64,000 nucleotides of DNA from Chloroflexota bacterium (GTDB lineage Bacteria; Chloroflexota; Anaerolineae; B4-G1; SLSP01): positions 22,522 to 86,521 of the forward strand of contig DAIUDK010000001.1 of NCBI GenBank assembly GCA_036845725.1, given 5' to 3'. Positions 27,635 through 59,132 of the stretch are shown here, in pieces (positions within the stretch are counted from its first letter, which is position 1; each line of letters begins with the position of its first letter). The position numbers were made by a program, and so were the translations under genes. Below the pieces are notes generated by a model that saw only the letters and a program-made list of their open reading frames with translations, was not told the DNA's origin and made no database searches.

Positions 27635-29005
27635 GTGAAAGTGGAAGAACTAAAGGCGACCCCAACCGAGCCTGTCTCAATGGAACAATGGGAGGATCAA
27701 CTCGAAGAATCGTTAGTAGGCACAGAACTTCGGCGCGGAGAACTTCGCGAAGGCATTGTCCTGGCGCTCAAGGATGGCGGACTGGTTGTTGATATCGGTT
27801 CAAAACGCGATGGGTTTGTCCCCCGTGAAGACCTTGAGGACCTCGAAAACAAAACGTTCACTGTAGGTGAGACCGTTAACGTCATCGTGACCCGGTTCCG
27901 CGATTCGGACGGCAACGTTGAACTGTCTGCCTCGCAAGCAATGCTCCAGGAGGACTGGATCAAGGCCGAGAAACTGCGCGAAGACGAATCCGTTTACGAA
28001 GCGTTGGTGTTGAATGCTAACCGCGGTGGTCTAACCGTCGAGTTTGGCCATCTACGGGGATTCATCCCGATGTCCCAACTGATCGGCTTCTCCCGCATCC
28101 GGCAGGCTGCCGAACGGCATCGCCGTTTGCGCGCGATGGTTGGGCAAACGATTATGCTCAAAGTTATCGAGGTTAATCGCCGTCGCCGCCGCCTCATCCT
28201 CTCCCAGCGGGCCGCCGCCAAAGAGTGGCGCTCGGCGCGTCGCCACCAACTGATGGAAGAGCTAGAAACCGGGCAAGTCCGGCGTGGACGCATCAGCCAG
28301 ATCACCGACTTTGGCCTGTTCGTCAATCTCGGAGGGTTGGATGGCCTGGTACACATCTCGGAACTGTCATGGGGCCGTATCGAAGACCCGCGCGAGGCCT
28401 ATCACGAAGGCCAGCGCATCAAGGTCAAAGTCCTGAGTGTAGACCGTGATCGCCAGCGCATCGCCCTGAGCATCAAGGCACTCGCTCCGGACCCGTGGGA
28501 CATCGCACCCGAAAAATACGAGGAAGGGACGCTAGTCGAAGGCAAAGTCACCCAGGTGGTGGATTTTGGCATTTTCGTTGAGCTGGAGCCGGGCGTCGAG
28601 GGGCTGCTGCACAATTCTGAGCTTGGTGATGTGGAGCAACGCAACGAACTGGAACCGGGCGCGGCTGTCTTGGTGAAAGTCATTCGCGTTGAACCGGACC
28701 GCCGCCGCATTGGGCTGAGCGTCCGGCAAGTCCGCCGCGACGAATGGGAAGAGTGGGCGCTCGCAAAGGCCGCAGCCGAGGCGCAGAGCGAAGTCGCAGT
28801 CGAAGAGGAAGAGTTCGACGACCTTGCGGAAGCTGACGAAGATGAGGATGAATTCGGACTGGAATTGCCGGATGAAGTAGACGAAGACGCAGAGGCCATC
28901 GAGGCCGATGAAAAAGAATTCGACGAAACGCCGCTGCCAGAAGATACCGAAGAGGCCACGCCCAGCGCTGATGAAGGTGACGAGGCGGCTGAGGCCGAAG
29001 ATTAA
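27635..29005 (+). CDS. rpsA: Ribosomal protein S1-like protein (4 S1 domains) with a 90-aa acidic C-terminal tail
   Basis: Four S1 repeats ([16 protein letters not shown]..., [16 protein letters not shown]..., [15 protein letters not shown]...). GTG start within the GGAAGAGGAGTGAAAGTG context. Confidence 0.7.
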
Positions 29006-29022
29006 AGGAGATCACAAACCGG

Positions 29023-29280
29023 ATGGCTGGCAAAGAAGAAAAGATTGTGGTCGAAGGGACCATTGTAGAGGCGTTGCCCGGCACGCAATTCCGTGTGCAG
29101 TTGGATTCAGGGCACGAAATCCTGGCCTACCTATCCGGGAAAATGCGCAAGTACTACATCCGCATTCTGTTAGGGGATCGCGTGCGTGTGGAACTTTCTC
29201 CATATGACCTGACCCGCGGGCGGATTGTTTACCGCCACAAGAAACAACGCGGGGCCAGCGAAGAAGAAGAAGAGGGATAA
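29023..29280 (+). CDS. infA: Translation initiation factor IF-1 (with a short acidic C-terminal extension)
   Basis: [71 protein letters not shown] matches IF-1 nearly end to end. Confidence 0.9.
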
Positions 29281-29380: not shown

Positions 29381-30286
29381 TTACATATGATTTCCGTGCG
29401 GCTTGCGTGCCACCAGAGCGATCCAGTCCTCACACTGCCGGCGCTCAACAACGGACAGCCCCTGCGCAGCCAGCGCCGCCGTAACCTCATCCGCCTGCTC
29501 CGCCAAAATGCCCGAGACCACCAGTGTGCCCGCACGCCGAATCCGCGTATCCAACCCTGACGATGCCATGTCAATGATGATGTGCGCGAGAATGTTCGCC
29601 ACGACCAGATCGTATGGCTCGCCGACCTCCGCCAGCGAGCCGTGCAACACTCGTATCTGATGCGCTGCATCGTTGACACGCGCGTTCCGCCGAGCGACTG
29701 CCACCGCGTTGACGTCGTTATCAACGGCAAGAATGTCCGCCGCCCCCAGTTTCGCCGCGACCAGCGCCAGGATGCCCGTACCGGTTCCCAGGTCCAACAC
29801 ACGCATCCCTGGCTGCACCAGGTCTTCCAACGCTTCGACGCACAACTGCGTTGTCGGGTGCAAACCGGTGCCGAACGCCATGCCGGGATCCATTTCTAAA
29901 AGTAGCTCACCGGCCTGCGCGGCGTATTCACGCCATGAGGGCTTGATGACTACCTGCCGGCCCAAGTGCAGCACGGGGATGCTTTCCTTCCAGCCGGACG
30001 TCCAATCCTGATCAAGGATCGGCGCAAAAATCGGCTCGGGGATGACAGGCCAGATGTGGTGCAGATGCCAGAGCGCCTCCTCCACTTTCCGACGCCGCTC
30101 GACAATGTCATCGTCTACAGCGAGATAGGCTTTGACGGTCACTTGCTGCGGTGTGGCCTCTTCGCCGGTGCCCAGATCAATGACCACACCCTGCGGCGCG
30201 TAACGACTGAACACCTCGGCGACGGCTTCCGCCGCTTCGGGGACCACTGCGACGCTAACCTCGAGCCATTCCATCTGTGCTGTCAT
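29381..30286 (-). CDS. prmA: Ribosomal protein L11 methyltransferase
   Basis: SAM-binding motif [20 protein letters not shown]; ...AVDNDVNAV...; DLVVANI. Confidence 0.85.
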
Positions 30287-31407
30287 AGTCCCAACGCTTC
30301 TTTGACACGATCCACGAAGCCGAGTTTCTCCTCGACAACCACCTCGGTGCCGAGCGTCCCTGACAATTCCTGAAACAATTCCTTCTGCCTTGCCGAAAGG
30401 CGAGTCGGGATAGCGACTTGCACCACAATCAACTGATCCCCCCGCCCGTTGCCGCGCAGGAAGGGAATGCCCAGATTGCGCAGGCGGAAGATCGCGCCGG
30501 ACTGCGTTCCGGCAGGCATGGTGATCTGCCGTTCGCCCTCCAACGTGGGCACTTTGACCGAGTCACCCAGCGCCGCCTGCGCCACGTTGATCTGCATTTC
30601 GAGGATGACGTCGTTATTGTGACGCTTGAAGTAGGCATGTGGCTTGACGCTGAGCGTGACGTACAGATTCCCGGACGGCGCACCGCGCTCGCCCTGCTCG
30701 CCCTGTCCCGCCAGGCGAATCGTGACGCCGTCATCCACGCCCGCCGGGATCGCCACTTTAATCCGCCGTCGCCGGTAGACACGGCCCTGGCCATTACACT
30801 CATGGCACGGTTTGGTGACGATCGTCCCCTTGCCATTACAGCGCGGGCAAGTGACGATGTTGACGAACGATCCCAGGAATGTGCGCTGCGTGTGGCGCAC
30901 CTGCCCCGCCCCACCACATTCCGGGCACTGTTCTGCTACTGTCCCTGGTTCGGCCCGCGAGCCATTACAGGTCGGGCAGATTTCCTGCCGCTGGATATCG
31001 ACTTCTTTTTCGACACCGAACACCGCTTCTTCGAAAGTGATCTCAACGGTGCTACGCAGATCTCCGCCGCGCCGTGGACCGGAGCGGCTCGCCTGCCCAA
31101 AACCACCAAATCCGCCCAGGTTGCCGAACACCTCGGCGAAGATGTCGAAGGGATCGCGCCCACCGCCGAAGTCGAAGCCGCCGAAGCCGTTCGGAACTTC
31201 TGTGCCAAAGCGGTCGTACATCGAACGCTTCTCAGGATCGGACAGCGCTTCATACGCGGAATTGACTTCCTTGAAACGCTCTTCCGCATCTGGCTCAGAA
31301 CTGACATCAGGGTGATATTTGCGTGCCAACTGACGATATGCACGTTTGATATCTTCCTGGCTGGCTTCCCGCTGAACACCTAACACTTCATAGTAATCTC
31401 TGCTCAT
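30283..31407 (-). CDS. dnaJ: Chaperone DnaJ (J domain, G/F region, CxxCxGxG zinc fingers, C-terminal domain)
   Basis: [11 protein letters not shown]...HPD has the J-domain HPD motif. Four CxxCxGxG repeats ([32 protein letters not shown]). Confidence 0.95.
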
Positions 31408-31422
31408 ACACCATCTCGTACT

Positions 31423-32172
31423 TTACGCCGCGTCTTGACAGTCACAGGGTTCGTCGTTCCCGCAACAACAGGCTTCCTGTTCGGTTGCGCCAGGTTCGTC
31501 GTCACAACAACAAGGTTCATCCTCGATAACGACTGCATCCACCACTTCCAATTTCGCTTCTGGTTCCGGGACACGGGATGACGCCTTTGCAACCACCACC
31601 GATGAAGGCCGCAACACACGTTCGCCCAGGATGTAGCCGCGCTCGACCTCGGCGACGATCTGCCCATCTTCGAAGCCCGGTATCTCCTGGTAGAGCACGG
31701 CCTGATGATAAAGCGGATCGAAGGCATCACCGGGTTGAAGCCCTATGGGTGTTACGTTCTCGGCTTCGAGAACACCAGCGATTTTGCGCTGGATGAGCCT
31801 GATTCCACCCAGCCACGGGTGTTCCGCCAAATCCTGCGGCAAGGCCTGGAATGCACGTTCGAAGTCGTCCAGCACCGGCAGGAAGCGGCTCAACAACGCG
31901 GCATTGGCCACGCTGCGCCACGAAACCTGCTCGGCCTCCGTACGCTTGCGATAGTTGACAAAGGAAGCCTGCGAACGCTGCAAACCGTCGAGGTATTCCG
32001 CCGCTTTCTGCTCGGCTTCGGCCAATTGCGCCGCAAGCTGCCGGATTTTTTCCTCAAGGGGCGGTTCTTCAGAAACACTTACTTCGCCCGGTTCGTGTTC
32101 TTCTGTCACAACGTCTTCAACGTCTGTTTCTTCAAGTTCGGTTTGGTTTTCTTCATGGATTTCTTCTGTCAT
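31423..32172 (-). CDS. grpE: Nucleotide exchange factor GrpE with an atypical Cys-cluster C-terminal tail
   Basis: Core ...FVNYRKRTEAEQ...DAFDPLYHQAVLYQEIPGFEDGQIVAEVERGYILGERVLRPSSVVVAK matches GrpE. Extra tail VIEDEPCCCDDEPGATEQEACCCGNDEPCDCQDAA. SD GGTGGAGGA. Confidence 0.85.
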   Translation of the reverse strand: MTEEIHEENQTELEETDVEDVVTEEHEPGEVSVSEEPPLEEKIRQLAAQLAEAEQKAAEYLDGLQRSQASFVNYRKRTEAEQVSWRSVANAALLSRFLPVLDDFERAFQALPQDLAEHPWLGGIRLIQRKIAGVLEAENVTPIGLQPGDAFDPLYHQAVLYQEIPGFEDGQIVAEVERGYILGERVLRPSSVVVAKASSRVPEPEAKLEVVDAVVIEDEPCCCDDEPGATEQEACCCGNDEPCDCQDAA

Positions 32173-32198: not shown

Positions 32199-33302
32199 TC
32201 AGGATGCGGTTATACTAGCATCATCTTCAGAATCGGGGAATACACCGCGGATCCCAGGCTGATACGTCTCATAAACCAGTTCACCGAGGATATTCGCCAC
32301 GAAACGCACAACGGAAATGGTACGACTGTAGGGCATACGCATCGGTCCGACGACGCCAAGCGCGCCGGTGGCGTAGTTTGTCACGCCGTAACGCGCCAGT
32401 ACAATGCTACATGTGCGCAGTTCATCCCAACGCCCCTCACCGCCAATAAGCACGCGCACGCTACCGACGCCCACCGCCGGGGTCAAGGTCTCAGCCAACA
32501 CCGCCTGGAGCAGGCTGCGCTCTTCCAACACCCTCACCACGGACGTGGAAGCGGCGTCGCCTTCGGTGAATTCCGGCTCTTGCAGCAGGTCGGAGAGACC
32601 GTGCTGGTAGATTTCGTCCGAGGGCGTGCCCTCGGCATTGTACATAATCGAAACGACCAACCGGGCGATGTCGGCCTCCAGCGTGGGCAGCTCACCTAGC
32701 CGCGCTTCGATAGCCGCGACGCGCAAACCGGCGAAAATCTGGTTGAGGCGGTCGGCGACGTCGCGCAGGGTCGTTTGCGTCAACGGTTCGGAGAGCGCCA
32801 GCATTTGCTGTTCGATGGTGCCGCCCTGCAACACCAGGATCAGCAGCACCGCCCGCCCGTGGGTGAGGACGAGTTCCAGGTGTTTGTACACCGGCTCCAT
32901 CGTGCGCGGCGCGGTCACGACCGAGGCTACGCCCGACGAGCGCGCCAGCACCGAAGCCGCCAGCGGCAACCACGCCTCGATGTGGTCGCGAGCCTGATGA
33001 AACTGGTGCGCGATGCGGCGCTGTTCCGGGACCGGCAGCGATTGCTCTTCCATCAAGCGCGCCACGAAGTAACGGAACCCGGCCTCGGTGGGTACCCGTC
33101 CCGCCGACGTGTGCGGCTGCGCCAGATAGCCGAGGTCTTCAAGGGCCGCCATCTCGTTGCGCACCGTCGCCGGGCTGAAGTCGAGCCGGTACTTGTCCAC
33201 CAGGGTGCGCGAAGCCACCGGGATCGTCGATTCGACGTGTTCCCGGACGATGAGCTTGAGCAGCAAGCCCTGACGTGAGGTTAGTTCTGGCGATTCGGTC
33301 AT
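32199..33302 (-). CDS. hrcA: Heat-inducible transcription repressor HrcA
   Basis: N-terminal winged helix ...LLKLIVREHVESTIPVASRTLVDKYRLDFSPATVRNEMAALEDLGYL. A CIRCE operator lies about 200 nt upstream. Confidence 0.9.
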   Translation of the reverse strand: MTESPELTSRQGLLLKLIVREHVESTIPVASRTLVDKYRLDFSPATVRNEMAALEDLGYLAQPHTSAGRVPTEAGFRYFVARLMEEQSLPVPEQRRIAHQFHQARDHIEAWLPLAASVLARSSGVASVVTAPRTMEPVYKHLELVLTHGRAVLLILVLQGGTIEQQMLALSEPLTQTTLRDVADRLNQIFAGLRVAAIEARLGELPTLEADIARLVVSIMYNAEGTPSDEIYQHGLSDLLQEPEFTEGDAASTSVVRVLEERSLLQAVLAETLTPAVGVGSVRVLIGGEGRWDELRTCSIVLARYGVTNYATGALGVVGPMRMPYSRTISVVRFVANILGELVYETYQPGIRGVFPDSEDDASITAS

Positions 33303-33502: not shown

Positions 33503-33529
33503 TTAGCACTCGGATATAGAGAGTGCTAA
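33503..33529. promoter_or_regulatory. CIRCE operator (HrcA binding site), perfect consensus TTAGCACTC-N9-GAGTGCTAA
   Basis: Sequence is ttagcactc-ggatataga-gagtgctaa. It lies about 200 nt 5' of hrcA on the minus strand, inside the hrcA/kdgK divergent intergenic region. Confidence 0.85.
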
Positions 33530-47117: not shown

Positions 47118-47501
47118 ATGCACTGGATCACCTCATTGGCTTGTCTTGGCGTTTTTACGCTAACTGCTGTAGGGCGTACGCTGGAAAGCGGCGTTTGGGA
47201 AGGCCACGTGACCTTTGGCCGGGGAGGCAGCAGCTTCAACCCATGCGGATCGAAAGAGACCTGGTGGGTGAAAAGCAAAGGATTCAGCAAAACCGCCGAG
47301 AAGCTCCAGGAGGACTATAACAGCATCGCGCAAAAACCCTACGAGCCGGTCTACGTCCGTGTAAGCGGCGACGTCAGCCGCAAAGGGCAGTACGGGCGAC
47401 TCGGCTCATACCAACGCGTGCTCTATATTGAAGAAGTGCTCGAAATCCGCCCCAAGAAAGATGATGATTGCAAGTCGGTAAAACGAATGAGCGAAATCTA
47501 A
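47118..47501 (+). CDS. Hypothetical small secreted protein / lipoprotein
   Basis: Signal peptide MHWITSLACLGVFTLTA. SD AAGGAG. No recognisable motif. Confidence 0.45.
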   Translation: MHWITSLACLGVFTLTAVGRTLESGVWEGHVTFGRGGSSFNPCGSKETWWVKSKGFSKTAEKLQEDYNSIAQKPYEPVYVRVSGDVSRKGQYGRLGSYQRVLYIEEVLEIRPKKDDDCKSVKRMSEI

Positions 47502-49942
47502 GGCAAAAACACAGTCCCTGCTGATTTCAGAACCAATGGCAGATACAGCCTGTACGACGTCACAGTCACAATCCACTGGATACTTCCCTCGCTGCAGGAA
47601 TTCGTGGCCGTCATGATGACGGTGTACGGGAGTGTTATGGTCGCTACCGGGAAGGTATACGTAACGACCTCGCCATAAACGAGCGGACTTCTATCCCCGA
47701 AATCCCACGCGAAATCAACCGGCGGCGTGCCCTCCGCCACCGTGCCGGTAAATGTAGCCGTCTGCCCAACAGCCAGATAGGACGGCGTGTAACTGAAAAA
47801 CGGCTCGACCACCGGAAAACACTCTGCGGCAATCGCGACAGTCGTCAAATCGCTGTAGGCCGAAACGCCTGTCCCAGATGCCGTCACCCGCACCGTATCC
47901 GTGAACCCCGTAAAAGCATTCCAGGGGACCGTGACCAGTGTTGTGACCGGTGTGCTCGCTTGCGGCGCTAATGTCACCTGCGTGGGAGTCAGCGTCGTCG
48001 CCAACGCCGCACCGGAGAACGCCAGACTATAGTCATCGGTGATATTGCCGATGTTGGTCAATGTGAGCGTGTACACCAGCGTTTTTCCCGCGTCGCCGTT
48101 AGCACTTATTTCCGGCGGCCAAAGCTCCAGGCCGTACACCGCATCCGCCGTCGTGCGGAGCGTGGCGCGCGCGCTGCGGGAGGGGTCGCCTGCCGACGTC
48201 GCCGTCACCGTGACCCTGTCCGATGCCCCGGACAATGCATCTGTGGGGATGGTGACCGTCACAGGCAGTGGCGCGGTCGCCCCGGCAGACAACGGCCCGA
48301 TTCGGGTCGGTGCGGTCGTCTGCCAGCCGGCACTGGTCAATGTGACGGTGAAGTTGTCCGCCGTCGTCCCGGTATTCGTGACGCGAAAGGCAACACTCAC
48401 CGCCTGGCCCGGCGCGCCGTGCTGTTCAACCGTCGCCGGCGCAATGGCGACGCCGTATTCGACCGAGGCGAGCGCCGCATCCACTGCCGATTTGATGTCC
48501 AGCCGCCCGTAACCGTAGACGTTGTTGGGCCAGCCGCTGCTGCTACACGCGGTCGAGTTGATGTGGAACGCATTGTCATTCAGCAGTTGCTCCGTTGCAT
48601 CGATCTGGTTCTTAAGCACCGGAACCGCCGACCACAACAGCGCCACGGCCCCGGCGACGTGCGGCGCGGCCATCGAGGTGCCATTCTTGGCGCCGTAGCC
48701 GCCGTTGGGAATACACGAGCGGACACTCGTCCCTGGCGCGGCAAGGTCGGGCTTGCGGCGGTTGCTGCCGTCCACCATCACCGGGCCGCGACTGCTCGAT
48801 GACCAGATCGTATCTGTGCCGGTGCTCAACGCCCCCACCGTGTACGCGGCGGCGTAAATCGCGGGAGGATCGTTCACCGTCGAACAATTCGAACCGGCGT
48901 TCCCTGCCGAGACGACGGTCATAATGCCCGCCGCGCGCTGCGCTTCCATCGCGTCTTGCAGCGTGCTCCACGAGCAGCCTTCGCCGCTAGGGCACGTCCA
49001 CGAGTTGTTGGTCACGTCGGGCGCTTTGCTCGGATCGCCCTGGGCAGACGTCCCACCCACCGGATACGGCGCGAGGAAGAACTCGAAACATTCCAGATAT
49101 GTGGCCGGTGTCCCGTACCCCACGTTCATATTGCGACAGCCGATCCACTGCGCGCCGGGCGCCATCCCGATCTGGTTCATCCCACCGTCATCGCCGACAG
49201 CCGTGCCCATCGTGTGCGTGCCGTGGCCGTAGTCGTCGCATGGCACAAACGAGTCTGCGCCGCACGAGCCGCCGCCGCTGTGAATGGCATCGTGCCAGTT
49301 GTAATCGTGGTTGGCCGTTGTCCCGTTCCAGCCGCGATAGTGTGGCTTCAGTGCCGGATGCGTCCAGTCGTAGCCCGTATCCTGCCCACCAACGACCACG
49401 CCCTGCCCGGTAAAGTCCATCGCCCAGACTTCCGGTGCGCGCACGTAGGTGATGTTCAGTTCGATAGCGGTAGGGGCGGCGGCGAGCAGCGCGTCGAGCG
49501 GGCGCGCGGGCTGCGGCAGCACGTTCTGGATGCGCGGGTTGCCCTCGATGCGCGCCACGTCGGGCCGTGCAGCCAACGCTCGCACCAGGTCGGCATCTCC
49601 TTTCACCCAGATCAGGTTGACGATGTAGTAGGCGCGATGTTCCACGCCGCGCGCGGCAAGCCACTTGAGCAGCGGCCTTTGCGAGGTCTGTGCGGTGCGC
49701 CACAGCGTCTCGTAGACGTAACGGCCCTTTTCCGCTTTCATTTGCAGTCGTGCCGCGCCGCTGAGATCCGCCTGCGCCGCCAGCACGACGAGGAACTCGG
49801 CCTCTGCGCCGCCGGCGGTGTGCGCGAGAACCCACGGGGCGATTTTATCGAGAGCCGGAGCAGCGCGCAGTGCGGTGGAAGGCGCACCGAACAGGCCGAG
49901 CAACAGCACAACAAACAAAACGACGCGGTAGAGTCGATTCAT
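47498..49942 (-). CDS. S8-family subtilisin-like serine peptidase with C-terminal Ig-like/PKD domains and a conserved YLPLV C-terminal tail
   Basis: Catalytic triad context GGQDTGYDWTHPAL (Asp), HGTHTMGTAVGDDG (His) and GTSMAAPHVAGAVALLWSA (Ser). Signal peptide from MNRLYRVVLFVV. PKD signature WDFGD. Ends ...SYRLYLPLVLKSAGTVFLP. Confidence 0.85.
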   Translation of the reverse strand: MNRLYRVVLFVVLLLGLFGAPSTALRAAPALDKIAPWVLAHTAGGAEAEFLVVLAAQADLSGAARLQMKAEKGRYVYETLWRTAQTSQRPLLKWLAARGVEHRAYYIVNLIWVKGDADLVRALAARPDVARIEGNPRIQNVLPQPARPLDALLAAAPTAIELNITYVRAPEVWAMDFTGQGVVVGGQDTGYDWTHPALKPHYRGWNGTTANHDYNWHDAIHSGGGSCGADSFVPCDDYGHGTHTMGTAVGDDGGMNQIGMAPGAQWIGCRNMNVGYGTPATYLECFEFFLAPYPVGGTSAQGDPSKAPDVTNNSWTCPSGEGCSWSTLQDAMEAQRAAGIMTVVSAGNAGSNCSTVNDPPAIYAAAYTVGALSTGTDTIWSSSSRGPVMVDGSNRRKPDLAAPGTSVRSCIPNGGYGAKNGTSMAAPHVAGAVALLWSAVPVLKNQIDATEQLLNDNAFHINSTACSSSGWPNNVYGYGRLDIKSAVDAALASVEYGVAIAPATVEQHGAPGQAVSVAFRVTNTGTTADNFTVTLTSAGWQTTAPTRIGPLSAGATAPLPVTVTIPTDALSGASDRVTVTATSAGDPSRSARATLRTTADAVYGLELWPPEISANGDAGKTLVYTLTLTNIGNITDDYSLAFSGAALATTLTPTQVTLAPQASTPVTTLVTVPWNAFTGFTDTVRVTASGTGVSAYSDLTTVAIAAECFPVVEPFFSYTPSYLAVGQTATFTGTVAEGTPPVDFAWDFGDRSPLVYGEVVTYTFPVATITLPYTVIMTATNSCSEGSIQWIVTVTSYRLYLPLVLKSAGTVFLP

Positions 49943-50066
49943 AGTTTCACCCTCAAAAAGTTTCATGTCAACGCTCAAGGCAGGTCACAATCCACGGTCT
50001 CCGCAGCCCCCCCCTTTAATCCCCCCCTCTAAGGGGAAACTAAAGGGGGGAATCAGTCCTTGCACA

Positions 50067-53000
50067 CTATTGGCCGCGCAAAATCACGGGCAAATAGACG
50101 TAGACAGTCTTTTGCTCAAGCGCGGTCGTCAGAACAGCTTGCGCCTGCACGGTTGGCGATTCAAGAATAGTGGCGGTTACGGTCAATATGTGCGGTGCTG
50201 CATCCAAGAGTGTTCCTGACTCAGGGATCGTCACTGTGACCGTCACGGGGGCAATGCCACCAACTGGCAAAGAAACCTGCGTTGGAACGATCTGCACCGG
50301 CCAGATACTCGACGGCGTAGTTAAGGCAACCGTTATAGGCAACGTCCCGACGTTGGTCACGGTCAGGTAATGAGACGCGGTTGCCCCAGGCAGCCCTGAC
50401 CGGTATGATACCGGCGGCGACAGTTCCAGGTCATAGGGAGCGGCCACCTCCGATGTTAGCACCAGCTCCGCCGGTGCCGTTATGCCCGGCCAGGAGGCAG
50501 TGACGCGGCTGGCGAACACGTTCAGATCGGTCCCGGTCGGGATCAGCACCGTCCAGGTGAAGGTCTGCACGGCCTCAGAATCCGACGCCAGATCACGCCA
50601 GATCAACGTTCCCAGCGCAACACTCGTGGCTGCCGGCGAATGAGACAATATCGTCACCGACGAGGGTAATGTGAGGGTCAAAACGCCATCTGTCATCGGC
50701 AACAGGCTATCGTTGAGCACCGTCAGAGTATAGGTGAGGGGAATACCAGGCCACACGCGAGCCGGCTGGGGTGTCAGCGCCAGCTCCAGGCGGGCCGGGG
50801 GCTGCGACAGACCCAACCATGCCAACCCGTCACGCAGGATAGTGGTCCGTTGCGCGCTATCGGCAACACCCTCCAGGCCAAACGCAAGGTAGATGAGACG
50901 GTGCGCGCCGTCGTCCACGGCCAACCCTGCCGCGCCGGTGGTATAGGTGAAGACCGGCGTCGCCGCCACATTATAAGGGGCAATCACGTCTGGGCTGGTT
51001 TGGTTGTCGGCCCCGCTTCCACCGGTCAACGTGACGTTCAGTCCGCTGTAGAACGAGAGGCCGACGGTTTCTGTCTCCCCGGCATTGTCCTGAATGAACG
51101 CAGCGTGCAAAACGTCGCGGAAGAAAGCGCCGTTGTCGTTCTTGATGTCCATCCCGATGTTCTGCCCGGTCACGAAGAGCCGCCCGCCGGCGTCGAGGTA
51201 AGTGAGCAGGGCGGTCTGCTCAGCGCGATTCAGGCTGTTGAGCGCATCGTCGCCGGTGAACCAGAACACACCCGTATAAGCCGCCAGCGTCTGGGGCGAC
51301 AACGGACCTTGCGTTGCTATCGTCCACGTCGCGTACGGAATTCTCAGTGCATCCAACGCCGGCAGGAGATAAGTCTCGTAGGACGCGCCGGCGTCGTCAT
51401 CCACGACCAGGAGCGCTGGCTTGGGATGCAGGCGCAAGGTGTGCGTCACCCACGCCCCCTCGGTGATGGTGACAGAGTAGGAACGCGGCCAATGCTCTGC
51501 CGCCGTCGCCGTGAACGTGTACACGTCAACCGGCAGCTCCAATGTCAGGGTCGGCGCTGCAGTCCAGGCCGTCCCCAATCCTTCCAGGGCGACGGTCGCC
51601 GTCAACGGTTGCGCCGATCCCAACTCGGCTACTATCAGAGAAAGCGTTCCCCAGGGCAACCGTTCCAGAGCAAAATCCTGCACAGAGGTCTCGCCGATAG
51701 CCATAGAAACGGTCGCCATGCTGCTTGCGTAGCCCAGCAGCGAAGCGGTCACGGTATACGTTCCGGCGTACAAAGGCAGGGTGTACTGTCCGGTGACATC
51801 GGTCTGGGTGACGTACTGGGCCGTGCCGCTGTCTGCTGTAACCTGCGCGCCGGATAGCGGAGTCGCCGTTCCCGAGACAACGACGGTACCGGTCAAAGCG
51901 CTGTCGTCCACCAACTGCACGAAGGCGGCAGAGATCGGGCCCCAGAAGCCATCGGCGTCCCGGCCTCGCACATAGACGAGATGTCGCCCGCGCGCCATGC
52001 CGGTCGTATCGATCTGAACCTGGGCGGCCTCTTCCGTTTCGTTGAAAGCGCCATCCAGCGCGAACATCGGAATGGGCGTACCGCCATCCCAGGGAGGTGT
52101 CCCCACGTAGATCTCCGCCGCCACAACTGCCTGGCCGGTATTCTTGCTATCGGCGTCATTGAGCGTCGCCTGCACGGTGATGGGCTGCCCAATCAACACC
52201 GCATCCGGCATCGCTGTGACGGTTTGGACGTGAGGGCCAAAGGACGTGAGATAGGGCGTCCGCGCGACTTTGGCGGCATAGAGGAGCGTGTCAACGTTCG
52301 GTTGGATCAAGGCATCGTAGCGCGAACAAGGTGGGTAAAATTCGTCGCTGCTCGAACCAATCTCAAAGGTGTAGGCCGCGACGCCCAATTCGCCGTAAGC
52401 CCAGTCATCGGTAGCGCCGCTAGTAGGATATAACGCGCTGGATTGCTGTGGGGTGAATCCGTTGAAGGACGCCATCCGCCGGCCGAGCATCTGCAATTGC
52501 GTGCCGTTCGGCGCGGGGGTGGAGGTATCTCCCCAAGGCCAAAGCACCAGATTACTGTAACTGTGCAGGGTGATGAAAACGCCGGTTGCATCGTCCGGCG
52601 CAGGGTCGGTGTCGTTGGGGCCGCGTTGATCGGGAAAAAGGGTAGCGACGAAGCTTTCCAATCGAATCGTTTCAATTTCAGAAGCCGCCGACGGCCCGCG
52701 ATAAGTTTCATCACAGGGGTTGGTGCTGGTGCCCGGCCCACCCCAATGGAAGCTGGAATTGCGGTTGAGGTCCACACCGTAGTCAGTGGAACTGCACGAT
52801 CCGTAAGGGTGGGTATTTTTGCGCCAGTAGGCCCAGGGTTGGCCCGGCTCGTTTTTTACGTGGCCGTCGGGATTGGCGCTGGTGAGAACGTAGATCAAGT
52901 GCTCGTCCAGCAACCAGGTCACGTCCGGGTCAACGTTGTAGTTCTCCAGCAAATACTGCATGAAGACCAACGCCGTCTCCGGGGTGATCAATTCGCGTCC

Positions 53001-53492
53001 GTGGATGTTCGCCACTAAGAAGAAAGTGGGTTTGTTGCTCGTCCCGGTCGCCTCGTTGGTCAAGCGCATCACCCGCAAAGGACGGCCCTCGTAACTCTGG
53101 CCGATGCTGAACAGTTGCGTAAAGTCGGGGTATGCTGCTGCCCACTGATCCAACTGCGCGTAGATCTCGTCCACCGTGCGGTAACACGGGAAACCGGGAA
53201 TAGTATCCGGCAGCGCGAGGTTCAGAGGCGATTCAGTGAAAGCAAAGCCAGCCGAGGTCAGCCACGCGTCGTCGGTGGTCGAGGTGTAGGCGACCACATA
53301 GCCGGTTTCCGGGTTCTGCGCGTCGCGGTGAACTTCCCACACATCCAGACGCGCCGTCAACGCCGCCAGTTCCTCCGCCGAAGCAAAGGTAATATGCACG
53401 ATACGGTCGCCGTCAGGGCTGTTGGCTTCGACAGGCAGGGCCGATATCAGGGTTATTCCTAATACAATGAGAAAAAGCCAGCATTTGCGCAT
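50067..53492 (-). CDS. M14-family zinc carboxypeptidase with CarboxypepD_reg-like and Ig-like domains, and a conserved C-terminal YLPVILR tail
   Basis: ...VANIHGRELITPE... carries the HxxE zinc ligands; ...ITLHSYS..., ...TFEIG... Signal peptide MRKCWLFLIVLGITLISALPVEA. SD GGAGGA. Ends ...KTVYVYLPVILRGQ. Confidence 0.8.
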   Translation of the reverse strand: MRKCWLFLIVLGITLISALPVEANSPDGDRIVHITFASAEELAALTARLDVWEVHRDAQNPETGYVVAYTSTTDDAWLTSAGFAFTESPLNLALPDTIPGFPCYRTVDEIYAQLDQWAAAYPDFTQLFSIGQSYEGRPLRVMRLTNEATGTSNKPTFFLVANIHGRELITPETALVFMQYLLENYNVDPDVTWLLDEHLIYVLTSANPDGHVKNEPGQPWAYWRKNTHPYGSCSSTDYGVDLNRNSSFHWGGPGTSTNPCDETYRGPSAASEIETIRLESFVATLFPDQRGPNDTDPAPDDATGVFITLHSYSNLVLWPWGDTSTPAPNGTQLQMLGRRMASFNGFTPQQSSALYPTSGATDDWAYGELGVAAYTFEIGSSSDEFYPPCSRYDALIQPNVDTLLYAAKVARTPYLTSFGPHVQTVTAMPDAVLIGQPITVQATLNDADSKNTGQAVVAAEIYVGTPPWDGGTPIPMFALDGAFNETEEAAQVQIDTTGMARGRHLVYVRGRDADGFWGPISAAFVQLVDDSALTGTVVVSGTATPLSGAQVTADSGTAQYVTQTDVTGQYTLPLYAGTYTVTASLLGYASSMATVSMAIGETSVQDFALERLPWGTLSLIVAELGSAQPLTATVALEGLGTAWTAAPTLTLELPVDVYTFTATAAEHWPRSYSVTITEGAWVTHTLRLHPKPALLVVDDDAGASYETYLLPALDALRIPYATWTIATQGPLSPQTLAAYTGVFWFTGDDALNSLNRAEQTALLTYLDAGGRLFVTGQNIGMDIKNDNGAFFRDVLHAAFIQDNAGETETVGLSFYSGLNVTLTGGSGADNQTSPDVIAPYNVAATPVFTYTTGAAGLAVDDGAHRLIYLAFGLEGVADSAQRTTILRDGLAWLGLSQPPARLELALTPQPARVWPGIPLTYTLTVLNDSLLPMTDGVLTLTLPSSVTILSHSPAATSVALGTLIWRDLASDSEAVQTFTWTVLIPTGTDLNVFASRVTASWPGITAPAELVLTSEVAAPYDLELSPPVSYRSGLPGATASHYLTVTNVGTLPITVALTTPSSIWPVQIVPTQVSLPVGGIAPVTVTVTIPESGTLLDAAPHILTVTATILESPTVQAQAVLTTALEQKTVYVYLPVILRGQ

Positions 53493-53562
53493 GGGATCCT
53501 CCAGAAAAGTGATGGGTAATGGGTAATGAGTTGGATAATGGGTCTTGAGTTTTGGGTTTTGC

Positions 53563-53597
53563 TGTGCGCCGCCTCCTTGTGGTGGAGGCGGCGCACA
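53563..53597 (-). terminator. Perfect 14-bp GC hairpin in the 118-bp spacer between the two giant-protein genes (no U-tract)
   Basis: tgtgcgccgcctcc-ttgtggt-ggaggcggcgcaca. Confidence 0.35.
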
Positions 53598-53610
53598 GGT
53601 TGAGAGCACG

Positions 53611-56600
53611 TTAGTCAGAAGCTCTTATGATTAACGGCAGGTATACCTGATACAGATGAACCGCAACGACTTGTTCTGCTACATCCCAGCCACAGGCGTT
53701 GGTCGCCGTCATCGCCACGGTGTAGGGGAAAATCGCGGTCTCGGTGGAGAAGGTGTGCGTGACGACAGCGCCAGTCGCCGTACCGCCATCACCAAAATCC
53801 CAGGTATAGACGATGGGCGGCGTGCCCGCCGTCACCGTGCCGGTGAACGTCGCCGTCTCACCGCCGAAGGGTTGTGCGGGTGTAAAAGTGAACGCCGCAC
53901 CGGATACGGAGATGCAGTCGAGCGTTGTTGTCAACAAGCTGGTCGTGGAAACCCCCGTACCCGCAGCGACGACACGGGCTGTATCGAGTGAGGCGGCCGT
54001 AGCAACCGGCACCGCGACCGTCGCCGTCACCGTGAGCGTCTGGCCGGGAGCCAGAGAAGCCATCTGTGAATTGAGTGTCGTCGACCAGGCAGCGTCCTCG
54101 ACGGAGAGTGTATAGGTATCGGCGGCATTGCCCATGTTCGACAGGGTCAATGTGTAGACCACCGTTTCGCCAGGGTCTGCATCCATCGACGCCGTCTGCG
54201 GGGAGAGCGCCACACCGTACACCGCGTTCGCGGTCGTGGTCACGGTTGCTGTCGCGCGCACGGCGGCATTGGCCTGTGACATCGCCGCCAACGTCGTCGC
54301 GGCGGCATCGCCAGCCAGGGCGCTCGCCGGGATTGTCACCGTCACCGGGACGGCGATCCCAACACCAACCTCCAGCGCGCCCGTTGTCGCCGTGACATCG
54401 ACCGGCCATACGCTTGTTGGGTACAGCGCGAACGTGTCCACGCAATTGCCGGTGTTCGTCACCCACAACGTGGTTTGCAGCACCGCAGCGGGATCGCCAG
54501 TAAGTTGCAATGGGTTCACGACGGCCTGCACGGCATATACGGCCCGGGCAGACGTCGTAGCCGTCGCTGAGACAAAACGGGAGGGACTTCCCTGCGATGC
54601 GACAGTTACCGTCAGTGTGTCCAACGCATCACACAAAGCGGCGTTGGGCACGGTCACGGTCACAGTGACCGGGGCGCTTTCTCCTGCAGCCAGCGGGCCA
54701 ACCATGGGTGTAGCGGTCGCGATCCAGTCGTCGCCGGAGAGCGTTACCGTGTAGGTGTCCGTCTCCAACCCTTCATTCGTCAGCATGAAGGTGTATGTCA
54801 CTTGCGCACCGGGCAAGCCACTTTGTGCCGCAGCAGAGGGCGACAACGCCACGGCGTAGGGTTGTACCACCGTCAGCGTGATGGGAACGCTCAACTCACC
54901 ATAGGGTGTACTGTTAGCAACGCGCAGATGAGCAGGGTAGACACCCGCGTCCATACCGCTCGCGTCGAAGTGTAGGGTTACGGCCTGCTCGCCGCCGATC
55001 CCAACCGTGCCCGTCACCGGATCGCTGGTCAGCCACGCCACCTCCTGCCAGGCGCAAACGCCGGTCTCGCCGGAAATGGCCTGGATGACCTGCCCCGTGA
55101 CCTGATTGACCGCCCACAGATTGCCGTCGCAATCCAGTGAGAGGCCGGCCTGCTCGAAGCTGCCCAGGCCATCAATGTCGAAGCCGCCAATGATGGTATA
55201 GCCGGCCGCCGTGTCGATGACGTACACGTCGCGCCCTATCGCAGCGTTGGACATCACAAACAAGTGGCGGGTCGCGGGGTTGTAAGCCAGACCGGCGATG
55301 TTCAGCTTTAGATCGTAGGAGTCCAACAAGCGCCCGGTCGCATCGAAGTGGTAGACAATTTGATCGTTCCACGAGCCGCTGTAGAAGGTGTCGGTCGTGG
55401 GATCGTAGGCCAGACCGCGCTCGGATACGCCGAAGGGCGGGCAAAGCGCGCGCCCGGTTGCCGCCGCCGTCCCCGGCGCGGTTGCTGGATCCAGTTCGTA
55501 CACGCAGCCATCTTCACCCACGTTGATCTGCCAGAGATTGCCGGTGATGGGGTTGTAGGCAATGTCGGCGGCAAACAGTGCAACCCACGGTGAGGTCGGC
55601 AGGGATGCGCCGGTGGGCGTACCGTCGGGTTCAAAAGCGACGTTGCGATCTTCGCCGCCGCCGAGACGGGTATCACTTAGCCAAAGCAGACCGGCAGCCG
55701 TGTCATAGGCGACGCCCCATGGCGAAACCAGGCCACTATCCCAGGTCTGGATGACGGTCCCTGCATCCAACAACGGCACGTCGGGCGGATCGTATTGGCG
55801 GACAGTAGTGGCATTGAGGTCGTGCAAGTGCTTGGGTGAGACGCGGCGCGTCATCCCGGCAAACGGCCCGGTGACGGTAATCGGCGTGAACGGCGCGTTG
55901 ATCTCCTGCAAGGTGAAACTGGCGCTAAACCCGCCGCTGTTGCTGAGCGTGATCGCGCGCGTGGTCATCGTATCGGCAGTCATCGTCAATGTAAGCGCAT
56001 TCGGCGCGACTGCAAGCTGTCCCGCATCGAGAGCGATGTCGTGGGCAACCGCTACACCGGCAGTCACAGTCGCCGTGACGACGCCAGGCGCGTAGCCGGT
56101 CGCCGTCGCGGTGACGACGTGTGTCCCGGCAGGCGCGAAGAGCGTGTAGAAGGCCCCCACGCCGGGTGCATTGTGCGTGCTGGCCTGAGCGGTGTAGCCC
56201 GCATCGTCGCGCAACACCGCAGCGACCGCTGCTCCGGTGTTGGCATCGGTCACTTCACCGACGATTAAGCCGCCCGCTGTGGGAGCACACGTCGAGGTCC
56301 CGACGAACACGTCATCCACTTGCCACCACCATTCGTAGTTGGCGTTGTAGTAGTGGAAGCGCACGCGCACGTCAGATTTCCCGACCGCCAGGGCGGAAAG
56401 GTTCACGCGCGCGGTTTTGGGGCCGCGGTCGTTGGCGCCGCTGCGCTGCCAAACGTTGGTCCAGGTCGTTCCCCCGTTCACACTCACGTCCACGTCGGCA
56501 ATTTCATTCTCGCCATAACTGTACCAACGAAAGTCATACTTGAATTCGAGGATGACCGCCGTCTGGGAAGAGAAATCCATAACGGGCGAGTATAAGACGG

Positions 56601-59007
56601 CGTCCACATTTTTCGCGCCCGCGTGGTCGCTATCGATGAGAGCAAACGATCCCGTCCCGCCAGTGCGGTTACCAAGCGACTTCGAGTCATCGAAGCGCCA
56701 CACCACGCCGGCCCCGGCGTTATCCACCAGTGACCAACCGGCAGGCAGAGCGCCACCATCGAAGGATTCTGTCGTCCCAACACGGCTGAGACTATAACCC
56801 GGCGCACGGCAGGTGACCGTATCCGCATGCAAAGCCACATTGCGCGTCACATTGCCCATCAACGGGCCGAGGGAAAAACTGGCGGGCAGGTAGCCGGAGA
56901 CCCAGGCTTCGACCTCCAGCGTGTAGGTGACTCCAGCCGCCAGCGTGAGGGTGTACGCGCCGCTGAGCGGATCGGTCCACACGACGTCGTTAGGCGCGGG
57001 CGGGTTGTAGGGCACACCCTGCACGCGGATGCGCGCGTAGAGCGGCCAACCGGTGAGCGCGTCGGTGACGGTCCCAGAAACGACGTAGGTCGGCGCGGGG
57101 GTGAGGGACAGGTTGAGTGTGGTGGTCGCGTTGCTGGTGACTTCGACGCCGGTTTGCGTGCGCGGGAAATAGCCATAAGCGCTGGCGGTGACGGTGTAAG
57201 TCTCCGGTTCAAGCAACAACACGTAGGAACCATTGCCGGCGCTGGTGGTGGCTTCCGTTCCGGATGGGCCGACAGCTTCGACGCGCGCGCCGCTCACGGG
57301 TGAAGATGTGGCGGCATCGGCGACAACACCGCGCAGCGTGCCGGGTTCGGCAGCCGTGCAGCCCGGAAAGCGAAAGGAGCCGATACGCGTCGACCACGAC
57401 GCGTATCCTGTCGTCGCCATGTACTCCTGCGTATACCAGAAGGTGCAATCGTCCACCGGGTCGATGCCCATCATACTGTAATCGCCCCAGCGATTGTAGG
57501 AACTACTCTGGTAACCGCTACCGGCAACTAACGAGACTTCATCCTGGGGCAACGTCCCCAGGGGATCGTTCGCCAGCCGCCCGGCGTACCGCACAGAGGG
57601 ATAAACACTGCTGCTGGAGACGCTGTAGCCCAGGGCCATGTTGCCCTCTCCATCCATCGCCACACTGCCCATCCAGCGGTGATGGGAATCCGGGGCGTAC
57701 GTGCCTTGCTGGTAAATGACGGGTGAACCACCGGGGTCGCGGACTTCGTACCAGCGCACGCCGGCGATGCCACTTCCGGCGTTGACCGTGTGGTTGACCA
57801 CGAGCGATTCGTGCGTGCCGAAGTTGCGGTAGGCCAGCCGGTACATCAGCCGGTCGCCGATGGCATCCAGCCGCACCGACGTGCCCGGCTGAGGGATGCA
57901 ATTGCGCGTGCTAGAACAGATCGGCGTCCACTCGGCCACGGGGATGACAAAGTTAGGCTGTCCGTTAAGGCCAAACGTCGTATTGGCAGGGTTGGCCCAA
58001 TCGACGTGGAATTCCCAGATCCGCATGGCGTCGTTCGGCCTGATCCAGGAACCATCATCCACTTCCATAAAGTAGTTGGGCGCACCCGCCGGCGGCAGCG
58101 TAGCGCCATCGAGGTCGGAGGGCAACATCCCGCCGAAATTATCGTTGACGTTATAAAGGTCAAAGAATTGAAAGGATGCCGTGGGGTCGCCGGTGAGCAT
58201 CTTATCACGCTCGAAGACGAAGACGCCCGCCCCACCCCAGTACTCGCTGTTGGTGAACTGGTTGACCGTCATATAGTACCCATCGGGCCAGACACCGAAC
58301 TTGGGGTAGTCGTTCATTTTGGTGGCGCTAACCTGAAAAGCATAACGATACCAGGCGCCGGTGGGGTCGGCGGTCTGGGAGACGGCGATACATTGGTAGT
58401 ACGGGCCATCGACGGAGAACTGAGTCATCAGCCAGCGATTGGCGATGGGATCAAAGAGGGTAATCGGGTCACCGTCGTTGGTGTTCGCACAAACACCGCC
58501 GAAGCCCTGCCAGATTGTGTTGCCGGTGACAGGGCCGTAGACCAGCGTAGGCGTGTTGGTCACGTCCCAGACGGCAAAGGAGAGGTTGACCCATTGCACA
58601 TAGTATTTCGTCCCGGTAGCCGGATCGTAGCCGATGTCGCCCTGGGTGTCAGGCGGATGCACGCCGTTGATGTTATCCAGGCCATCGAAGCTGGTGAGCG
58701 GCGATGGCATCGCCATGGGACCGGTTACGCTTTGCAGGACGCGGTCCGTCGTGTAAAACGCATCCGACTGGACAGCTTTAGGAAGGCGGAACGAAAACGC
58801 AGTTTCGTCTCCCCCTATCGCCTGCTGGCCGCTGTCTATTGATAGCGCGCGTAACGCCGGAGAGACGTCCATGCGCTCGGCGTACCCCACGGTGGGCGTC
58901 AGCGGCGCGGGCGGGGCGGCGAAGGCCAGGCGCGGGGGTATGGCCAGCGCGCCGAAAAACAAAACGAGCAACAATGATAAACAAAGATTCTTTTTCACGT
59001 TTGTCAC
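53611..59007 (-). CDS. Giant (about 1800 aa) secreted multidomain protein: N-terminal unknown domain, CarboxypepD_reg-like domains, MAM/jelly-roll-like domain, beta-propeller region, CARDB/Ig-like repeats, PKD domain, and a conserved C-terminal YLPLIIR tail
   Basis: Signal peptide ...KKNLCLSLLLVLFFGALAIPPRLAFA. GTG start at 59007 with GAGGGAG 5 nt upstream. PKD signature WDFGDGG. Ends ...HLYQVYLPLIIRASD. Confidence 0.6.
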   Translation of the reverse strand: MTNVKKNLCLSLLLVLFFGALAIPPRLAFAAPPAPLTPTVGYAERMDVSPALRALSIDSGQQAIGGDETAFSFRLPKAVQSDAFYTTDRVLQSVTGPMAMPSPLTSFDGLDNINGVHPPDTQGDIGYDPATGTKYYVQWVNLSFAVWDVTNTPTLVYGPVTGNTIWQGFGGVCANTNDGDPITLFDPIANRWLMTQFSVDGPYYQCIAVSQTADPTGAWYRYAFQVSATKMNDYPKFGVWPDGYYMTVNQFTNSEYWGGAGVFVFERDKMLTGDPTASFQFFDLYNVNDNFGGMLPSDLDGATLPPAGAPNYFMEVDDGSWIRPNDAMRIWEFHVDWANPANTTFGLNGQPNFVIPVAEWTPICSSTRNCIPQPGTSVRLDAIGDRLMYRLAYRNFGTHESLVVNHTVNAGSGIAGVRWYEVRDPGGSPVIYQQGTYAPDSHHRWMGSVAMDGEGNMALGYSVSSSSVYPSVRYAGRLANDPLGTLPQDEVSLVAGSGYQSSSYNRWGDYSMMGIDPVDDCTFWYTQEYMATTGYASWSTRIGSFRFPGCTAAEPGTLRGVVADAATSSPVSGARVEAVGPSGTEATTSAGNGSYVLLLEPETYTVTASAYGYFPRTQTGVEVTSNATTTLNLSLTPAPTYVVSGTVTDALTGWPLYARIRVQGVPYNPPAPNDVVWTDPLSGAYTLTLAAGVTYTLEVEAWVSGYLPASFSLGPLMGNVTRNVALHADTVTCRAPGYSLSRVGTTESFDGGALPAGWSLVDNAGAGVVWRFDDSKSLGNRTGGTGSFALIDSDHAGAKNVDAVLYSPVMDFSSQTAVILEFKYDFRWYSYGENEIADVDVSVNGGTTWTNVWQRSGANDRGPKTARVNLSALAVGKSDVRVRFHYYNANYEWWWQVDDVFVGTSTCAPTAGGLIVGEVTDANTGAAVAAVLRDDAGYTAQASTHNAPGVGAFYTLFAPAGTHVVTATATGYAPGVVTATVTAGVAVAHDIALDAGQLAVAPNALTLTMTADTMTTRAITLSNSGGFSASFTLQEINAPFTPITVTGPFAGMTRRVSPKHLHDLNATTVRQYDPPDVPLLDAGTVIQTWDSGLVSPWGVAYDTAAGLLWLSDTRLGGGEDRNVAFEPDGTPTGASLPTSPWVALFAADIAYNPITGNLWQINVGEDGCVYELDPATAPGTAAATGRALCPPFGVSERGLAYDPTTDTFYSGSWNDQIVYHFDATGRLLDSYDLKLNIAGLAYNPATRHLFVMSNAAIGRDVYVIDTAAGYTIIGGFDIDGLGSFEQAGLSLDCDGNLWAVNQVTGQVIQAISGETGVCAWQEVAWLTSDPVTGTVGIGGEQAVTLHFDASGMDAGVYPAHLRVANSTPYGELSVPITLTVVQPYAVALSPSAAAQSGLPGAQVTYTFMLTNEGLETDTYTVTLSGDDWIATATPMVGPLAAGESAPVTVTVTVPNAALCDALDTLTVTVASQGSPSRFVSATATTSARAVYAVQAVVNPLQLTGDPAAVLQTTLWVTNTGNCVDTFALYPTSVWPVDVTATTGALEVGVGIAVPVTVTIPASALAGDAAATTLAAMSQANAAVRATATVTTTANAVYGVALSPQTASMDADPGETVVYTLTLSNMGNAADTYTLSVEDAAWSTTLNSQMASLAPGQTLTVTATVAVPVATAASLDTARVVAAGTGVSTTSLLTTTLDCISVSGAAFTFTPAQPFGGETATFTGTVTAGTPPIVYTWDFGDGGTATGAVVTHTFSTETAIFPYTVAMTATNACGWDVAEQVVAVHLYQVYLPLIIRASD

Positions 59008-59132
59008 ATTTTCTCCCTCAGTCTGAATACCAACCACAGCGTACTATACCATTGAGCGATGTGAAGTCCAATGCAGTGCGAGCCAGAGTCTTTTCATTCT
59101 CCTGGTGCAACGTATCTCCTCTCCCACAAAGT

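Follow-up and report, generated by a model that had tools for sequence, protein, structure and literature searches.

The GroES protein of Helicobacter pylori, HspA, ends in a His/Cys tail that binds nickel, serves as a store for it and detoxifies it; deletion of this tail leaves the bacterium viable, with lower nickel content and nickel tolerance and with impaired hydrogenase maturation (PMC3856676). The folding helper SlyD likewise has a His/Cys tail, which binds Ni2+ and Zn2+ (PMC3292732). GrpE is among the best-studied co-chaperones. It is known to be regulated by temperature and, in mitochondria, by the oxidation of individual residues; redox control acts on the GrpE homologues Mge1 and GRPEL2 (PMC3596242, PMC6089081). 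The GrpE of Mycobacterium tuberculosis (8GB3) has a C-terminal tail of 48 residues that is disordered and invisible in the DnaK-GrpE complex (PMC10803776). Here we describe the grpE gene in a 64-kb stretch of DNA from a Chloroflexota bacterium (contig DAIUDK010000001.1), referred to below as the window. Its product is a heat-shock-regulated housekeeping GrpE with a genuine, lineage-restricted and selectively maintained C-terminal tail, which is acidic, predicted to be disordered and equipped with eight cysteines.

A cysteine-clustered tail on GrpE

The grpE coding sequence lies on the minus strand at 31423..32172, an open reading frame (ORF) of 249 codons plus stop. The product matched PF01025 over residues 34-196 (model positions 4-165 of 165; E 4.9e-39) with a score of 134 bits against a cut-off of 25.8, and it matched the GrpE structures 4ani, 8gb3, 1dkg and 3a6m in the PDB with E values down to 8.9e-23. 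The NCBIfam GrpE equivalogs also matched (E down to 2.8e-34), every one of them under its curated cut-off. By domain match and gene context the protein is a GrpE nucleotide exchange factor, and exchange on DnaK is its predicted activity. Pfam, PDB and substitution data together delimit the GrpE domain, with its long helix, four-helix bundle and beta-domain (residues 34-196; 31585..32073, minus strand). This domain held 65 invariant columns across 37 relatives, which are 90%-identity cluster representatives, all of them from metagenome-assembled genomes (MAGs) or metagenomes of uncultured Anaerolineae or other Chloroflexota.

Past the end of the family models there is a C-terminal tail of 53 residues (197-249; 31426..31584, minus strand), also set apart by model confidence and substitution rates, which reads ASSRVPEPEAKLEVVDAVVIEDEPCCCDDEPGATEQEACCCGNDEPCDCQDAA. 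It begins with a Pro/Glu linker and continues with a hydrophobic-acidic motif, EVVDAVVIEDE (residues 209-219; 31516..31548, minus strand), which is conserved as EVVDAEVVEDE in the clade. Cys block 1, CCCDDEP (residues 221-227; 31492..31512, minus strand), is followed by a short linker, Cys block 2 and a QDAA terminus. Block 2, CCCGNDEPCDC (residues 235-245; 31438..31470, minus strand), contains the conserved core module CCC-x5-C-x-C and sits 4 residues from the C-terminus. The peptide encoded by the last part of the gene, 31423-31530 on the minus strand, is VIEDEPCCCDDEPGATEQEACCCGNDEPCDCQDAA, followed by the stop.

The first-pass annotation of this DNA had singled out a cysteine-clustered tail on GrpE, and the tail is there, with all of the protein's Cys in 25 residues. 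It had counted nine Cys; there are eight, at residues 221-223, 235-237, 243 and 245, and none elsewhere in the protein. Across the ~40 likely genes of the window Cys makes up 0.94% of residues, so that a run of 25 residues has a probability of 5.5e-11 of holding at least eight Cys, or ~1e-6 once multiplied by all 18,928 positions. The GrpE cluster was the densest in any reading frame of the window, and a search through the real genes of the window gave no second Cys-rich or acidic-Cys tail. The Cys region (residues 216-249, 34 residues) is composed of Cys and Asp/Glu/Pro/Gly, with ~28% Cys in CC, CCC and CxC motifs and ~41% Asp/Glu, and has no His, Lys, Arg or aromatic residue (F, W, Y). A few relatives carry one aromatic or His residue there, His being found in a handful of the 37 (e.g. 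P0004, P0025, P0036, P0037 and P0040).

An internal direct repeat of 21 nt had also been claimed. The repeat exists, at a different length and in imperfect form: a first copy of 26 nt, GAACCTTGTTGTTGTGACGACGAACC, at 31493..31518 and a second of 29 nt, GAAGCCTGTTGTTGCGGGAACGACGAACC, at 31448..31476, both on the minus strand, which match at 23 of 26 aligned bases with 3 mismatches and one 3-nt indel. Its score was reached by 6 of 2000 codon-order shuffles, and at the protein level the pair reads CCC-D-DEP versus CCC-GN-DEP.

We built an AlphaFold2 model on the 37-sequence alignment. The mean predicted local distance difference test score (pLDDT) was 58, with even the beta-domain poorly modelled, and pLDDT fell below 50 for residues 1-34 and 190-240; both the N-tail and the C-terminal tail are predicted to be disordered. 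The N-tail (residues 1-33; 32074..32172, minus strand) had been described as an acidic extension. It is acidic, with 18 Asp/Glu within the first 45 residues, and by pLDDT, composition and substitution rates it is the ordinary GrpE N-tail: the alignment with E. coli GrpE (1DKG) begins at query residue 18 and chain residue 14. Such a disordered, acidic N-tail is regularly present in GrpE and matters for its function; in M. tuberculosis GrpE the equivalent tail drives substrate release, which depends on it (PMC10803776).

Two further roles were set aside. Membrane tethering, raised in the first-pass annotation, and lipidation are out, as the tail is cytoplasmic and highly acidic and has no hydrophobic segment or lipobox element. 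DnaK disfavours acidic peptides, and we therefore rejected as unlikely a role of the Cys region as a DnaK pseudo-substrate.

Conservation and origin of the tail

The identical GrpE protein was found on at least 24 independently assembled contigs (65 index blocks; ENA, JGI and Logan assemblies), and the hrcA-grpE-dnaJ-prmA arrangement was constant on all of them. The Cys-rich tail was kept in the 37 relatives, from 88% down to ~55% identity, with the consensus EVVEDExxCCDDEPxECxxPxTEQDxCCCGDDEPCDCQDAA. The Cys pattern of this consensus is CC-x6-C ... CCC-x5-C-x-C-x4-COOH; the window copy has CCC ... CCC-x5-C-x-C. At the five terminal columns, whose distance to the C-terminus is fixed, Cys was present in 31, 36, 34, 33 and 27 of the 37 sequences. 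Block 1 reads CC-DDE(P/S)-x-E-C in most relatives, with Cys in 21-23 of 37 per column, and in the window lineage and its 88% relative (L001) a five-residue ECPAP segment was lost and a third block-1 Cys gained.

We calculated the ratio of nonsynonymous to synonymous substitution rates (dN/dS) by the Nei-Gojobori method from eight DNA sequences. Values were 0.05-0.16 for the GrpE core, 0.09-0.39 for the Cys region, 0.08-0.40 for the whole C-terminal tail (residues 197-249) and 0.2-1.07 for the N-tail, the least constrained stretch of grpE. Constraint on the Cys region is thus weaker than on the core and stronger than on the N-tail. Conserved Cys codons showed synonymous TGT/TGC switches among the eight sequences, and these switches together with the low dN/dS indicate that the tail is coding and is kept by purifying selection.

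A spurious Cys-rich extension could in principle arise from a frameshift, from loss of a stop codon or from faulty assembly, and a frameshift with absence of the tail from close relatives had been named at the outset as the outcome to watch for. The region does hold a short direct repeat, and one relative, P0038, looks frameshifted in its tail. We nevertheless regard an artefact as refuted: independent assemblies gave the same protein on all those contigs, frame and Cys columns are conserved throughout the 37 representatives, and the substitution pattern fits purifying selection. The P0038 protein (ENA, 253 aa) has a tail reading ...VGVWGSVLRRRIGRVLLLR in place of an acidic or Cys tail, probably owing to a frameshift in that assembly; its neighbour on the tree, P0037, is Cys-rich. 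In L006 (DYKY01000068.1, Thermoflexus sp. MAG SulCav_AS07-7) the GrpE-tail stretch, at locus position ~3950-4120, is masked as a run of N, and the sequence flanking the run matches P0028, a Cys-tail GrpE.

Alignment with Chloroflexota orthologues, which the first-pass annotation had called for, showed the tail to be lineage-specific. In a neighbour-joining tree of the core domain from 120 homologues, the Cys-tail GrpEs made up one narrow Anaerolineae subclade. The sister and nearest lineages have acidic tails of 20-60 residues that lack Cys; these frequently contain a comparable hydrophobic-acidic motif and finish in -D-A(A). It follows that the acidic tail is ancestral and the Cys cluster was added later. 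An ancestral disordered acidic tail thus acquired an internally duplicated Cys cluster. The EVVDAVVIEDE motif is likewise older than the cluster, related (D/E)(I/V)(I/V)EGE(V/I) motifs being found in Cys-free Anaerolineae tails, and it could be a short linear interaction motif of earlier origin. Cys-free GrpE tails of Anaerolineae also showed (I/V)(I/V)EGE(V/I)(I/V) motifs and termini of the -QDA/-DAA type, and in P0026, P0027 and P0029 the EVVDAEVV motif is tandemly expanded, e.g. VMDADVVDAEVVDAEIVED.

This history leaves room for a tail that serves protein contact or solubility through EVVDAEVV and QDAA, as a partner-docking or entropic tail, with the Cys as a tolerated lineage-specific embellishment that grew by slippage or duplication. 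The Cys-free acidic tails with their similar motif and ends are what such a tail would look like, the internal duplication and the variable block 1 speak of repeat dynamics, and several sublineages have lost the Cys. Five Cys columns conserved over lineages with near-saturated synonymous sites, with dN/dS well below 1, would be unexpected if the cluster were neutral, however, and Cys is otherwise rare in the window and absent from the rest of GrpE. We consider this explanation improbable.

Outside the clade we did not find a comparable tail. When 1.84 billion representatives at 50% identity were searched exhaustively with a profile, 31,028 GrpE-like proteins were obtained, and the whole Cys clade was a single one of these representatives (P0042). 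In the other 146 best GrpE representatives of the 31,028, the last 45 residues never held more than 2 Cys, and none of 7 solved GrpE-family sequences had such a Cys tail. A profile of the tail alone is short and compositionally biased: in a 5.8-billion-protein index it gave no match at E<=10 and missed even its source GrpEs, and it therefore says nothing about the spread of the tail. Pfam and NCBIfam GrpE models end by about residue 204 of the window protein; two actinobacterial-type NCBIfam models reach 219 and 228 and still stop short of the Cys blocks. Solved GrpE structures end at about residue 195-204, except for the disordered M. tuberculosis tail. In the literature searched we found no paper describing a Cys-rich GrpE tail; "cysteine-rich" beside GrpE was never a GrpE feature, the chaperone papers meaning the DnaJ zinc finger, and a 2025 review of GrpE-like exchange factors does not mention metal, zinc or C-terminal extensions (PMC12987570). 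The initial impression that no standard GrpE has such a tail therefore held up, in the representatives, in the solved sequences and in the literature searched.

Operon setting and candidate functions

The window grpE is the single housekeeping grpE, in a heat-shock-regulated operon controlled by the CIRCE operator (controlling inverted repeat of chaperone expression). The first gene of the operon is hrcA (32199..33302, minus strand; Pfam HrcA, E 2.3e-44). About 200 nt upstream of it is a perfect CIRCE operator, TTAGCACTC-N9-GAGTGCTAA, at 33503..33529 (0 mismatches; 0.01 chance matches expected), with a promoter-like (sigma-70-like) TTGACA-N17-TATCAT site just upstream. On the other side of grpE, dnaJ (30283..31407, minus strand; Pfam DnaJ, DnaJ_CXXCXGXG and DnaJ_C) starts 15 nt past the grpE stop and encodes a normal zinc-finger domain with four CxxCxGxG. 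The last gene of the conserved cluster encodes a PrmA-like methyltransferase (29381..30286, minus strand), identified by synteny and by PF06325 (PrmA) on the identical contigs. The grpE-dnaJ-prmA order was found in 19 of 19 Anaerolineae loci, with or without the Cys tail, and hrcA was syntenic in 18 of 19; the remaining locus (L013) begins no more than 90 nt from grpE and thus does not extend to hrcA. This constancy in all 19 loci identifies the gene as the housekeeping grpE and not a paralogue. We looked for a dnaK/Hsp70 signature motif in the window and found none, and the operon likewise has no dnaK in all 19 Anaerolineae loci.

We tentatively favour metal binding as the function of the tail, at somewhat less than an even chance: by analogy with known metal-binding tails, it would bind soft metal ions via thiolates and act as a metallothionein-like store, buffer or protective device on the Hsp70 machine. 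Under the reducing conditions of the cytoplasm, the tail would present a metallothionein-like set of thiolate ligands for Zn(II), Cd(II), Cu(I) and possibly Ni(II), taking up perhaps one to three ions per tail, with each GrpE dimer bearing two tails. As an abundant protein under HrcA/CIRCE induction, GrpE could thereby place on the Hsp70 machine a buffer or store for metal that is induced by stress. The tail might keep thiophilic metals away from the DnaJ zinc centres and from unfolded clients, or keep metal ready to be delivered, working like the His/Cys tails of the Helicobacter GroES (HspA) and of SlyD, while nucleotide exchange by the GrpE domain itself would be unchanged. We count in support of metal binding the recurrence on at least 24 contigs, the fixed Cys columns, purifying selection, composition, metallochaperone analogues and the CIRCE operator. 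Predicted disorder is counted as well, since apo metal-binding tails are likewise disordered.

The metallochaperone analogues came from a scan of metagenome contig DNA for CCC-x-[DE]3-x-C-x-C, which gave at least 120 matches, mostly out-of-frame or low-complexity noise. No GrpE gene was among the matches listed, which did include the following proteins. One (L059) is a SlyD-type peptidyl-prolyl isomerase with a C-terminus ending ...HECCCGEDEDCDCDH and a tail reading HECCCGEDEDCDCDHDGSCDCDH; the 33 residues before the tail match Thermus SlyD (E 6e-8). Another (L074) is ArsD-like (Pfam ArsD, 7.8e-13), with CCCGDDDGCCC and a His/Cys-rich end. There were also small membrane-anchored proteins with an acidic poly-Cys stretch, and a family of ~160-190 aa (L055, L068, L093, L098, L100, L105, L108, L115, L121, L140 and L141) whose members have a coiled part at the N-terminus, then a long acidic poly-Cys stretch (CCC/DDDD) and a zinc ribbon resembling that of LysW (PVFYEITCPNC...). 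The poly-Cys and zinc-ribbon module of this family looks like an unannotated metal-binding module. In L094, a CobW/COG0523 GTPase (Pfam cobW, 1.4e-35), the same module is fused to the GTPase with a His6 run; the protein contains H6-D6-ECCCDDDECCCC, and its HHHHHHDDDDDDECCCDDDECCCC is followed by a zinc ribbon. SlyD, ArsD and COG0523 proteins are metallochaperones, and the motif class therefore keeps metal-handling company. Two further matches listed (L128 and L130) are RidA/YjgF proteins (Endoribonuclease L-PSP) with a C-terminal PCSDCCCGEDDECCCEDDCEEDESTDQ tail (CCCGEDDECCC); RidA is another housekeeping protein equipped with an acidic poly-Cys add-on.

Several points weigh against metal binding. 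The metallochaperone association is one of analogy, not homology, and comes from the listed matches of a noisy motif search. Most or all Cys have been lost inside the clade in P0035, P0039, P0041-P0045 and P0016, so the function of the tail would be dispensable. No metal-homeostasis gene was linked to the operon on the identical contigs or in the 19 Anaerolineae loci. HspA and SlyD have His in their tails and the GrpE tail has none; the GrpE tail is also far more acidic than classical metallothioneins. The description "metallothionein-like" in the first-pass annotation fits as regards composition and the CC, CCC and CxC motifs; it fails at the level of family models, as three tail sequences matched no metallothionein model at Pfam E<=10 or NCBIfam E<=1. 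At the same cut-offs no other Pfam or NCBIfam model, zinc fingers included, matched the tail.

The main rival to metal binding is a thiol redox switch, which we hold to be possible and rather doubtful. On oxidant exposure of the (probably anaerobic) cell, disulfides within a tail or between subunits would alter dimer geometry or DnaK binding and slow exchange, leaving DnaK to hold its clients during oxidative stress; such a switch could coexist with zinc binding, as in Hsp33. Redox sensors are known within the GrpE family, in yeast Mge1 (PMC3596242) and in human GRPEL2 with its Cys87 disulfide (PMC6089081; review PMC12987570). The tail has a conserved CxC pair and conserved vicinal Cys, and it holds every Cys of the window GrpE. 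On the other side, a disordered tail behind a Pro/Glu linker after the beta-domain offers no evident route from oxidation to exchange, two to four Cys would suffice in place of a conserved eight, and the dense acidic context should raise the thiol pKa and lower reactivity.

Regulation could also go beyond a disulfide switch. If the Cys cluster were a regulatory input, metal binding, or its loss on oxidation, would alter contact of the tail with the beta-domain or DnaK and so tune exchange, which we think unlikely. It would make the tail a direct metal or redox sensor on the bacterial Hsp70 exchange factor, beside the known thermosensor, and a new regulatory mode of bacterial GrpE that evolved independently of the eukaryotic redox control of Mge1 and GRPEL2.

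The same all-Cys ligand set, with at least four conserved Cys, could serve a [2Fe-2S] or [4Fe-4S] cluster on one tail or bridging the subunits, linking DnaK to Fe-S maturation or to oxygen or iron sensing. Hsp70 systems do take part in Fe-S biogenesis (HscA/HscB, and mitochondrial Ssq1 with Mge1), which favours this idea. Fe-S sites do not usually have adjacent CCC triplets or the CxC spacing, a folded scaffold is predicted to be lacking, no Fe-S family model in Pfam or NCBIfam matched, and the operon holds no isc or suf genes. An iron-sulfur role is highly improbable.

Other genes of the window have tails of their own. The S1-domain ribosomal protein encoded at 27635-29005 (plus strand) has an extremely acidic C-terminal tail of ~60-70 residues, and the IF-1 homologue at 29023-29280 (plus strand) carries an extension. 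Acidic terminal tails seem to be common in this genome, the GrpE tail being the sole one with Cys. Farther along, four consecutive very large ORFs on the minus strand (47498-49978, 50067-53609, 53611-59037 and 59197-63984; 826, 1180, 1808 and 1595 aa) share a motif at their C-termini, ...YRLYLPLVLKSAGTVFLP, ...VYVYLPVILRGQ, ...LYQVYLPLIIRASD and ...HTIYLPLVMRNAQ. The shared 'YLP-hydrophobic-R' tag has the appearance of a signal for sorting or anchoring that is specific to the lineage.

Comparison with known systems

Metallothioneins share with the GrpE Cys region (residues 216-249) a Cys content of ~28% in CC, CCC and CxC motifs, the lack of aromatics, an internal duplication and predicted disorder without metal; CCC motifs are also known from ciliate Cd-metallothioneins. 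They differ in being small free-standing proteins, whereas the Cys cluster is the tail of a 249-residue GrpE, in having Lys/Ser where the GrpE tail has Asp/Glu, and in that no metallothionein model matches the tail. In CopY repressors, Zn(II) or two Cu(I) are bound at a C-terminal CxC-x4-CxC thiolate site. The terminal CCC-x5-C-x-C, read as CxC-x5-CxC, resembles this site, with spacing one residue off and an unrelated protein context.

Hsp33 is a Zn-thiolate redox switch with a CxC...CxxC site. Together with Mge1 and GRPEL2 it provides the precedent for a redox role of the GrpE tail, namely stress sensing via oxidisable residues in a chaperone or exchange factor. The window tail has the CxC, as C243-D-C245, and lacks the CxxC half-site. 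In Mge1 the residue used is a single Met and in GRPEL2 a single Cys of the helical stalk, unlike the terminal Cys cluster of the window GrpE. M. tuberculosis GrpE is a bacterial GrpE with a long disordered C-terminal tail, as in the window; the paper describing it reports no Cys cluster there and does not deal with what the tail does (PMC10803776).

The tails of HspA and SlyD are close parallels. HspA, like the window GrpE, is an essential housekeeping co-chaperone of a heat-shock operon with a disordered, lineage-specific and dispensable C-terminal extension that has Cys-Cys motifs; it belongs to the GroES system and its tail is His-rich and basic, whereas the GrpE tail is strongly acidic and has no His ligands. 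SlyD, an FKBP-type isomerase, is a folding helper with a disordered Cys/acid tail, and the end of the metagenomic SlyD, HECCCGEDEDCDCDHDGSCDCDH, almost equals the GrpE CCCG(D/N)DEPCDC. SlyD tails contain many His and Gly and sit on an unrelated carrier domain; the likeness is a convergence in composition, with no evidence of homology.

If metal binding or a redox response is borne out, GrpE would be the third independent core folding helper recruited to such a task, after GroES/HspA and SlyD, and proteostasis would be linked to metal or oxidative stress in widespread, uncultured Anaerolineae. The CCC-x5-C-x-C unit would be a short, transferable tail module, and the acidic poly-Cys stretches on SlyD, ArsD-like, CobW-like and RidA proteins would form an unannotated class of probable metal-binding add-ons. 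The impact on the field would be modest unless there is a regulatory effect on the DnaK cycle. Co-chaperones with metal-binding tails are already known, and the novelty of the present tail, judged by these analogies, probably lies in its GrpE carrier with an unusual all-Cys and acidic chemistry.

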